The notes under the pieces: model-generated
What the model saw: only the letters and a program-made list of their open reading frames with translations
What the model was told of the DNA's origin: nothing
The model's database searches: none
Position numbers and translations under genes: made by a program
In this document: one piece after another, positions 11,702 through 11,741 of the stretch
Layout: every line of letters starts with the position of its first letter
Numbering within the stretch: position 1 is the stretch's first letter
Source of the DNA: an uncultured Bacilli bacterium
GTDB lineage: Bacteria > Bacillota_I > Bacilli_A > RF39 > UBA660
NCBI GenBank assembly: GCA_934102215.1
Contig: CAKOSH010000003.1
Span: 59,187 to 123,186 of the forward strand
Length of the DNA: 64,000 nt
Reading direction: 5' to 3'

Positions 11702-11741
11702 GTAATTATTATAGCATATATTACCCCCCCCGCAAGCAAAC
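11702..11741 (-). promoter_or_regulatory. Conserved promoter cassette with G8 tract (TTGCTTGC-GGGGGGGG-TAATATA-TGCTATAAT)
   Basis: Extended -10 at 11708-11716, poly-C 11724-11731 on plus strand; nearly identical to cassettes at 5443..5482 and 31025..31064. Confidence 0.6.

Follow-up and report, generated by a model that had tools for sequence, protein, structure and literature searches.

By analogy of layout, the closest counterparts of the element described here would be the poly-C promoters of the Bordetella fim genes, followed by the promoters of the Mycoplasma vlp genes. In the Bordetella fim promoter, one-base changes in the tract reportedly alter its geometry, a finding credited to Chen et al. 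in 2010, and the vlp genes of Mycoplasma hyorhinis are said, from work by Citti and Wise in 1995, to carry a poly-A tract in the promoter spacer between -35 and -10. These vlp genes have near-identical 5' regions (promoter, leader, and signal peptide) and divergent C-terminal parts. Most known phase variation in gut commensals involves invertible promoters, in Bacteroidales, or methyltransferase switches. In Bordetella pertussis fim2 and fim3, a poly-C tract separates the BvgA site from the -10, and the gain or loss of a single C switches expression (PMC10172299). SinR, whose site is GTTCTYT, represses tapA-sipW-tasA in B. subtilis (PMC5733473), and the Gram-positive LexA (Cheo) box is GAAC-N4-GTTC, ending in GTTT in clostridia (PMC4234289). 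Our literature searches returned no description of the cassette reported below, nor any account of promoters that vary through a homopolymer, whether for TasA-like proteins or in gut Firmicutes. The mechanism that we propose is already of a known kind; if true, TasA-type fibres and commensal gut Firmicutes would here have their first described SSR-promoter contingency system.

In the window, by which we mean the whole stretch of 64,000 nucleotides that was analysed, the cassette lies on the minus strand between the TAA stop codon (11755-11757) of glyQS, the glycyl-tRNA synthetase gene (11755..13128, minus) whose stop codon adjoins it, and the ATG (11680-11682) of a TasA-like gene, just where a previous sequence-only reading had placed it. 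That reading took it to be a 40-bp element at 11702-11741, which on the minus strand, from 11741 to 11702, is GTTTGCTTGC-G8-TAATATATGCTATAATAATTAC, and almost identical to a second one at 5443-5482. The near-identity was borne out, with 36/40 positions equal between the two minus-strand 40-mers, and so was the cassette itself; its upstream border was not, as the conserved block reaches 11754. By per-column conservation in 22 copies, the block begins with a sharp rise 17 nt 5' of GCTTGC and ends at the -10 hexamer. This gives a conserved 47-bp cassette copy 2, AACGCGAGCATTTGTTTGCTTGC-G8-TAATATATGCTATAAT, at 11708..11754 (minus, nhmmer E = 4e-15), in which a degenerate palindrome is followed on the minus strand by GCTTGC, G8, TAATATA, and TGCTATAAT. 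Copy 1 (5449..5495, minus, G8 at 5465-5472) lies 5' of paralogue 1. The third dispersed copy that had been claimed is present 5' of paralogue 3 (31031..31076, minus), though with G7 at 31047-31053 and TATACT as its -10. A profile built from 20 copies has exactly three matches in the window, with E <= 4e-15, and none elsewhere in it, while the window has exactly two copies of the 22-mer TTGCTTGCGGGGGGGGTAATAT versus 0 expected from 100 shuffles.

The G runs themselves stand out in a window with a GC content of 25.9%. Runs of at least seven G are found only at 5465-5472, 11724-11731, and 31047-31053, which amounts to five overlapping matches versus 0.19 expected; these three cassette runs excepted, the longest G or C run in the window is at most 5. 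When the window is taken together with the first 19 related loci fetched, every G run of at least six is within a cassette. Copy 2 also has an 8-bp hairpin of its own, CGCGAGCA-N6-TGCTTGCG (11730-11751, minus strand), of which GCTTGCG is one arm and which forms in place of the family palindrome. The 121-nt region that holds this hairpin has a folding z of -3.9 relative to shuffles, and it is not a canonical terminator. We considered whether CGCGAGCA/TGCTTGCG might be the intrinsic terminator of glyQS and rejected this, since the hairpin runs into G8 and not into a T run. An Rfam search of the window gave no match at any cassette.

The most conserved part of the block reads as a promoter. The extended -10 TGCTATAAT (11708..11716, minus), whose TGCTATA is invariant in 22 copies, is a perfect match to TGnTATAAT and sits 25 nt 5' of ATG 11682 (25-28 nt across the three window ATGs); TGnTATAAT at a comparable distance from the start codon is the usual form of intergenic promoters in the window. 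Upstream of it, a search for a -35 with at least 4/6 matches at 16-18 bp had as its best candidate TTGCGG (11730..11735, minus), a putative hexamer with 3/6 matches that overlaps the first two Gs of the tract and has a 16-bp spacer to the -10 at G8. The G8 homopolymeric tract (11724..11731, minus) thus lies 10 nt 5' of TATAAT, overlapping TTGCGG, between the putative -35 and the -10. The cassette is missing from the sites called by a sigma-70 consensus scan of 10200-12200, which called no more sites overall than were called in shuffles. Since the -35 matches at 3/6 positions only, the scan missed the cassette, whose promoter status therefore rests on conservation and context. On these grounds copy 2 is probably a sigma-A extended -10 promoter with a weak -35, from which transcription would start at about 11700-11702. 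Sigma-54 and ECF-type promoters were considered by eye and dropped because their spacing is unfit.

An 804-aa protein family found under the cassette in related contigs (L005, L012, L013, and L019) bears on where transcripts begin. Its ATG is exactly 6 nt 3' of the -10, and in L005, L012, and L019 there is no alternative in-frame start within the first 40 codons, which points to a leaderless mRNA beginning where the -10 predicts. The members of this family, whose mRNA is thus probably leaderless, carry PARCEL repeats and resemble the DUF6273 paralogues at the C-terminus, with an N-terminus of another kind. Their cassettes are at ~5470-5550 of the reverse complement in L012 (minus strand), L005:220-260, L019:473-512, and L013:4232-4270, with the tract interrupted (GGGGAGTGG) in three samples.

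How far does this layout match the described systems? As in Bordetella fim2/fim3/fimX, dispersed paralogous genes for fibre subunits are concerned, and a G/C homopolymer lies between an upstream dimeric-regulator site, here putative, and the -10, with no good -35 (PMC10172299). The tract is shorter, however, at 7-9 versus about 13-15. In Bordetella the regulator is BvgA. The organism here is a Gram-positive-type spore former whose TasA-like proteins have swappable C-terminal domains, and switching with an effect on expression, as in fim, is a prediction here. With M. hyorhinis vlp it shares a multigene family with near-identical 5' regions and divergent C-termini, a homopolymer between -35 and -10, and a small AT-rich genome. 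It differs in having poly-G versus poly-A, copies dispersed at conserved chromosomal sites versus one cluster, and SipW-type versus lipoprotein signal peptides.

The gene under copy 2 (10456..11682, minus) encodes a 408-aa TasA-like protein, paralogue 2, in which a Peptidase_M73/TasA-like module at the N-terminus is joined to DUF6273 at the C-terminus. It is preceded by a Shine-Dalgarno-like GAGGA (11694..11698, minus), as read from the sequence, and followed by a terminator-like hairpin, ATATTTCAAAG...CTTTGAAATAT, and a T run (10393..10431, minus). Paralogue 3 (29669-31003, minus) is built in the same way, from a TasA-like module and DUF6273, while paralogue 1 (3780-5420, minus) joins a TasA-like N-terminus to DUF285/PARCEL repeats. 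The earlier description of a noncoding cassette in front of a TasA-like gene agrees with the PF12389 scores, which are 36.1 bits for paralogue 2, 38.2 for paralogue 3, and 21.7 for paralogue 1, the last just below the gathering cut-off of 22.5. A fold comparison may point the same way. An AlphaFold model of paralogue 2 has a confident beta-sandwich at residues ~38-175, with pLDDT ~75-90 for the N-terminal domain, and among PDB entries it matches the TasA fibre 8aur best (E = 1.3e-4), with a low TM, the query model spanning the whole protein. An exhaustive search for the TasA-like N-terminal module returned 1976 cluster representatives, versus just 8 relatives in a word-indexed protein search. 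In nearly all of the 150 listed of these 1976, the module is N-terminal, in proteins of 128-2438 aa, which suggests that it acts as a general export/anchoring unit with variable passengers.

The start of paralogue 2 had been assigned to ATG 11680-11682, and the N-terminal extension from TTG-11739 in the six-frame translation had been regarded as untranslated. Public gene calls on an ENA contig of which the window is an identical part (ERZ27287040:k141_211791, a MEGAHIT assembly) use this same ATG, giving the 408-aa product. The extension is encoded by the cassette itself and is not common to the paralogues, and a 1-nt deletion within it in strain L043 breaks its frame, so it is noncoding. The upstream extension is, to judge from these reading frames, an artefact, with translation predicted to begin at ATG 11682.

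Like B. subtilis tapA-sipW-tasA and Clostridium perfringens sipW-bsaA, the family has an N-terminal TasA/camelysin-like module, PF12389, weak BsaA/SipW matches, and the TasA fibre as its best PDB fold match. Unlike either of them, it numbers many genes per genome, each under a promoter of its own and with a large C-terminal passenger that varies, and it has a G tract. The BsaA-family and SipW matches in the window are weak, as with ORF 655-1125, which matches the SipW model at E = 9.5e-4 and 18.8 bits with a cut-off of 190. At 655-3668 (minus), directly 3' of paralogue 1, a full-length SecA homologue (848 aa) is followed by an overlapping 156-aa ORF with a weak match to SipW-type signal peptidases; the two may be a dedicated export/processing pair for the TasA-like family. 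The genome also encodes SpoIVA, CotZ-like proteins, and penicillin-binding proteins, and the DUF285/PARCEL repeats present in some cassette proteins occur in Mollicutes as well (PMC2996958).

We wondered how widespread the cassette might be. Pattern scans, covering one genome per species and metagenome contigs, together with look-ups via neighbouring genes, gave 31 distinct cassette contexts, all from one MAG or from related contigs of gut metagenomes, and every one of them 5' of a surface-protein gene. The sole species representative with a cassette is a 1.53-Mb MAG labelled Clostridium sp. The cassettes lie ~20-30 nt 5' of the surface-protein ATG, or directly at it, and have the family consensus AAnAAGAACAAATGTTCGCTTGC-G8-TAATwTwTGCTATAmT. 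Mean pairwise identity among 18 copies is 0.81 in the left part of the block and 0.90 in its right part, versus ~0.7 in the leader and early coding region and 0.58 in the flanks, the last being the background for AT-rich DNA; the related genes are just ~70-88% identical to those in the window. A phage origin was rejected, since the 28 viral-contig matches to a 16-mer all come from contigs of 40-71% GC and none has the remaining cassette, as expected of chance matches. Seven of the IMG/VR contigs (L058, L059, L063, L070, L071, L072, and L077; 57-60% GC, unrelated phage) have in common ...GGTGGAGTTTGCTTGC-G(8-9)-CACTGTCC, a chance match to part of the cassette in which the G run is variable in its own right.

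Immediately 5' of GCTTGC, the family has a 12-bp palindrome with the consensus GAACAAATGTTC (GAAC-N4-GTTC), which in copy 2 is the degenerate GAGCATTTGTTT (11738..11749, minus). Copy 2 has two mismatches to GAAC-N4-GTTC, and copies 1 and 3 have one each; the clostridial form GAAC-N4-GTTT is matched exactly by copy 1 and with one mismatch by copy 2. In 325 kb of related DNA, exact GAAC-N4-GTTC sites number 10, and all of them (10/10) are inside cassettes. The suggestion, made from copies in the window, that the cassette reflects joint regulation or selection is strengthened by the 31 distinct copies and by this cassette-specific palindrome. If transcription starts 7 nt past the -10, the centre of the palindrome would be near -42. 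Dimeric regulators that contact RNA polymerase, or that occlude the -35, usually bind there. The sequence equals the Gram-positive LexA box, the family consensus aGAACAAATGTTCg fitting GAAC-N4-GTTC and copy 1 the clostridial form, and as with a LexA (Cheo) box the GAAC-N4-GTT(C/T) palindrome stands beside a promoter (PMC4234289). Unlike LexA boxes, it is found only 5' of surface-protein genes in the DNA examined. Its half-sites also resemble the SinR site GTTCTYT, a likeness to tapA-sipW-tasA (PMC5733473); unlike that system, the window has no sinR-like gene, and among the window ORFs scanned there is none for lexA, sinR, or another HTH regulator.

Taken together, these findings make it reasonably probable that a self-contained surface-protein gene module has its promoter/operator at 11708-11754, with a G tract that sets spacing and is able to slip. 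In the mechanism that we propose, a sigma-A-type promoter would be built on the extended -10 TGCTATAAT and a weak -35, TTGCGG, that overlaps the G8 tract. The 12-bp palindrome near -42 (GAACAAATGTTC, degenerate in copy 2) would seat a dimeric regulator and thereby couple all family members into one regulon; the degenerate palindrome of copy 2 is a caveat to this reading. The G tract would fix the distance from the -35 and the palindrome to the -10. As a homopolymer it is mutable, and slipped-strand addition or deletion of one G would shift that distance copy by copy. Expression of individual paralogues might thereby be tuned or switched, in the way known from the poly-C promoters of Bordetella fim2/fim3. 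Binding of a regulator and an effect of tract length on expression are what we infer from this arrangement.

Tract lengths, read from consensus assemblies and compared strain against strain, change between close strains for the family and do not for copy 2. At copy 3, which lies 5' of rpsB, the tract is G7, G8, G7, and G9 in four strains that have the same RpsB protein and near-identical flanks. At the glyQS locus, G8 is found in 7/7 strains at the consensus level, and the length variation anticipated for the tract, and with it hypermutability, is supported at family level by the rpsB sister locus and lacks support for paralogue 2. The only base that varies at the glyQS locus is the one 3' of the tract, which is changed from T to C in L042 and deleted in L043. 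Across the family, indels within the block occur only at the tract or beside it. The T 3' of the G run is replaced by C at two different loci (L042:746; L032:1031 and L035:1030) and deleted at L043:748, the remaining block being invariant. A first metagenome pattern demanded TAAT after the tract, so that CAAT and AAT variants were missed and G8 was seemingly invariant; neighbour-gene look-ups recovered these variants.

Over the 31 contexts, GCTTGC and TATAAT are 18 nt apart in 20 cases, 19 nt in five, 17 nt in three, 20 nt in one, and 16 nt in two, although both 16-nt cases and one 19-nt case come from MAG CP091739.1 and are discounted. We set aside the lengths G6, G9, G6, and G8 in this MAG as variation, since the adjacent paralogue CDSs are frameshifted in a manner typical of homopolymer errors, which makes its tract lengths unreliable. 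In CP091739.1, a complete MAG (L002, L003, and L004), the paralogue CDSs are truncated by frameshifts in A runs. Where the tract is interrupted (GGGGAGTGG and TGAGGGGGG), a 9-nt filler is retained, which results in TTGCnn-17-TATAAT with a canonical 17-bp spacer.

Since the length is mostly constant, with a G8 run in 21/31 contexts and the modal 18-nt distance in 20/31, it fits a fixed spacer equally well as a poised switch. The main rival to the slipping promoter is accordingly a fixed regulon promoter that does not phase vary, in which the G run would be a conserved spacer, or an element contacted by a protein or by RNA polymerase, held at 8 nt, and the length differences would be rare ordinary mutations. 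This account, which we regard as possible but on the unlikely side, draws as well on the uniform G8 of the glyQS locus and of all copy-1 orthologues seen, and on the G-richness beside TAAT that is partly retained even in interrupted variants. Yet spacing alone would not explain why more than 20 diverged copies retain an unbroken G8 at 26% GC, and the account does not sit well with three lengths among the four rpsB-locus strains or with the confinement of block indels to the tract and its edge.

The module comes and goes as a unit, which is relevant to another account of the block. The whole module, i.e. cassette, CDS, and terminator hairpin (10401..11753, minus), is missing in L048 and L051, where glyQS and its own terminator are followed by sepF and there is no paralogue 2. 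The remaining two loci also lack a module in some strains, and in others the paralogue type differs. In the L049 mosaic, the locus-specific left half of the cassette is kept while the right half and the gene are different, and in the L029 mosaic a copy-3-type right half and leader (5'UTR) are joined to a copy-1-type coding start; these mosaics indicate that recombination occurs within the cassette. Recombination could also homogenise the block through concerted evolution, with no need for selection to act on the tract. One might go further and see the block as a recombination anchor or insertion scar, kept mainly as a 5' homology arm for module exchange, with expression by upstream read-through. 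Presence and absence of the module at all three loci, different paralogue types at one site in different strains, and the breakpoints inside the cassette all speak for this, as does a cassette that abuts the upstream stop codon without a terminator at copies 1 and 2; with no terminator between glyQS and copy 2, read-through could also express paralogue 2. It does not account, however, for the leaderless arrangement or for the fact that conservation peaks in a perfect extended -10 spaced correctly from the start codon, and copy 3 is ~550 nt from its upstream gene. A pure anchor is less likely than a fixed-spacer promoter, and improbable as the main reason for the block; exchange at the cassette is compatible with the promoter reading and does not exclude it.

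Least likely of all, and in our judgement quite doubtful, is that the palindrome is an SOS operator, the family being LexA-repressed and DNA-damage-induced and the G tract incidental, for although the box has the LexA sequence and adjoins the predicted -35, it has mismatches in copy 2 and half-sites that are also like those of SinR, the scanned window ORFs include no LexA or other HTH regulator, the available DNA, which does not include lexA, recA, or uvrB, has no SOS gene with a GAAC-N4-GTTC box, the upstream region of uvrA being free of it, and we know of no precedent for ten or more surface proteins under SOS control.

Returning to the promoter with a slipping G tract, it may be part of a larger scheme, which we offer as speculation. 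A human-gut Clostridium-like bacterium with a small genome might practise combinatorial surface variation, with at least ten swappable TasA-like fibre or adhesin modules that share an operator and a G-tract promoter, one regulator (possibly LexA- or SinR-like, binding GAAC-N4-GTTC) gating all of them, G-tract slippage choosing the members that are expressed, and recombination at the cassette moving modules between sites and strains. If the G tracts switch, this clade would vary its surface fibres or adhesins in the style of Mycoplasma or Bordetella, which would matter for how its strains persist, evade immunity, and resist phages. Tract heterogeneity could readily be measured at the level of reads, and the cassette can serve as a marker, a short DNA pattern that pulls a whole variable gene family from metagenomes.

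Some other features of the window were noted. Just 5' of cassette copy 1, a class B sortase-like gene is apparently split into two ORFs (5500-5901 and 5971-6438, minus), one for an N-terminal, membrane-anchored part of 155 aa and one for a catalytic part of 133 aa (TIGR03064, E = 7e-19, with a score well short of the cut-off), and this segment is missing from strains L029 and L030. The ORFs at 13128-13886, 14618-15244, 31628-32035, and 41280-42415 are conserved and have no Pfam match; among them is a 135-aa predicted secreted/membrane protein 5' of copy 3, which is retained where the paralogue is missing. The sole Rfam match in the window is a ribosomal protein L21 leader (RF00559, 45 bits) at 46212-46288 on the minus strand.
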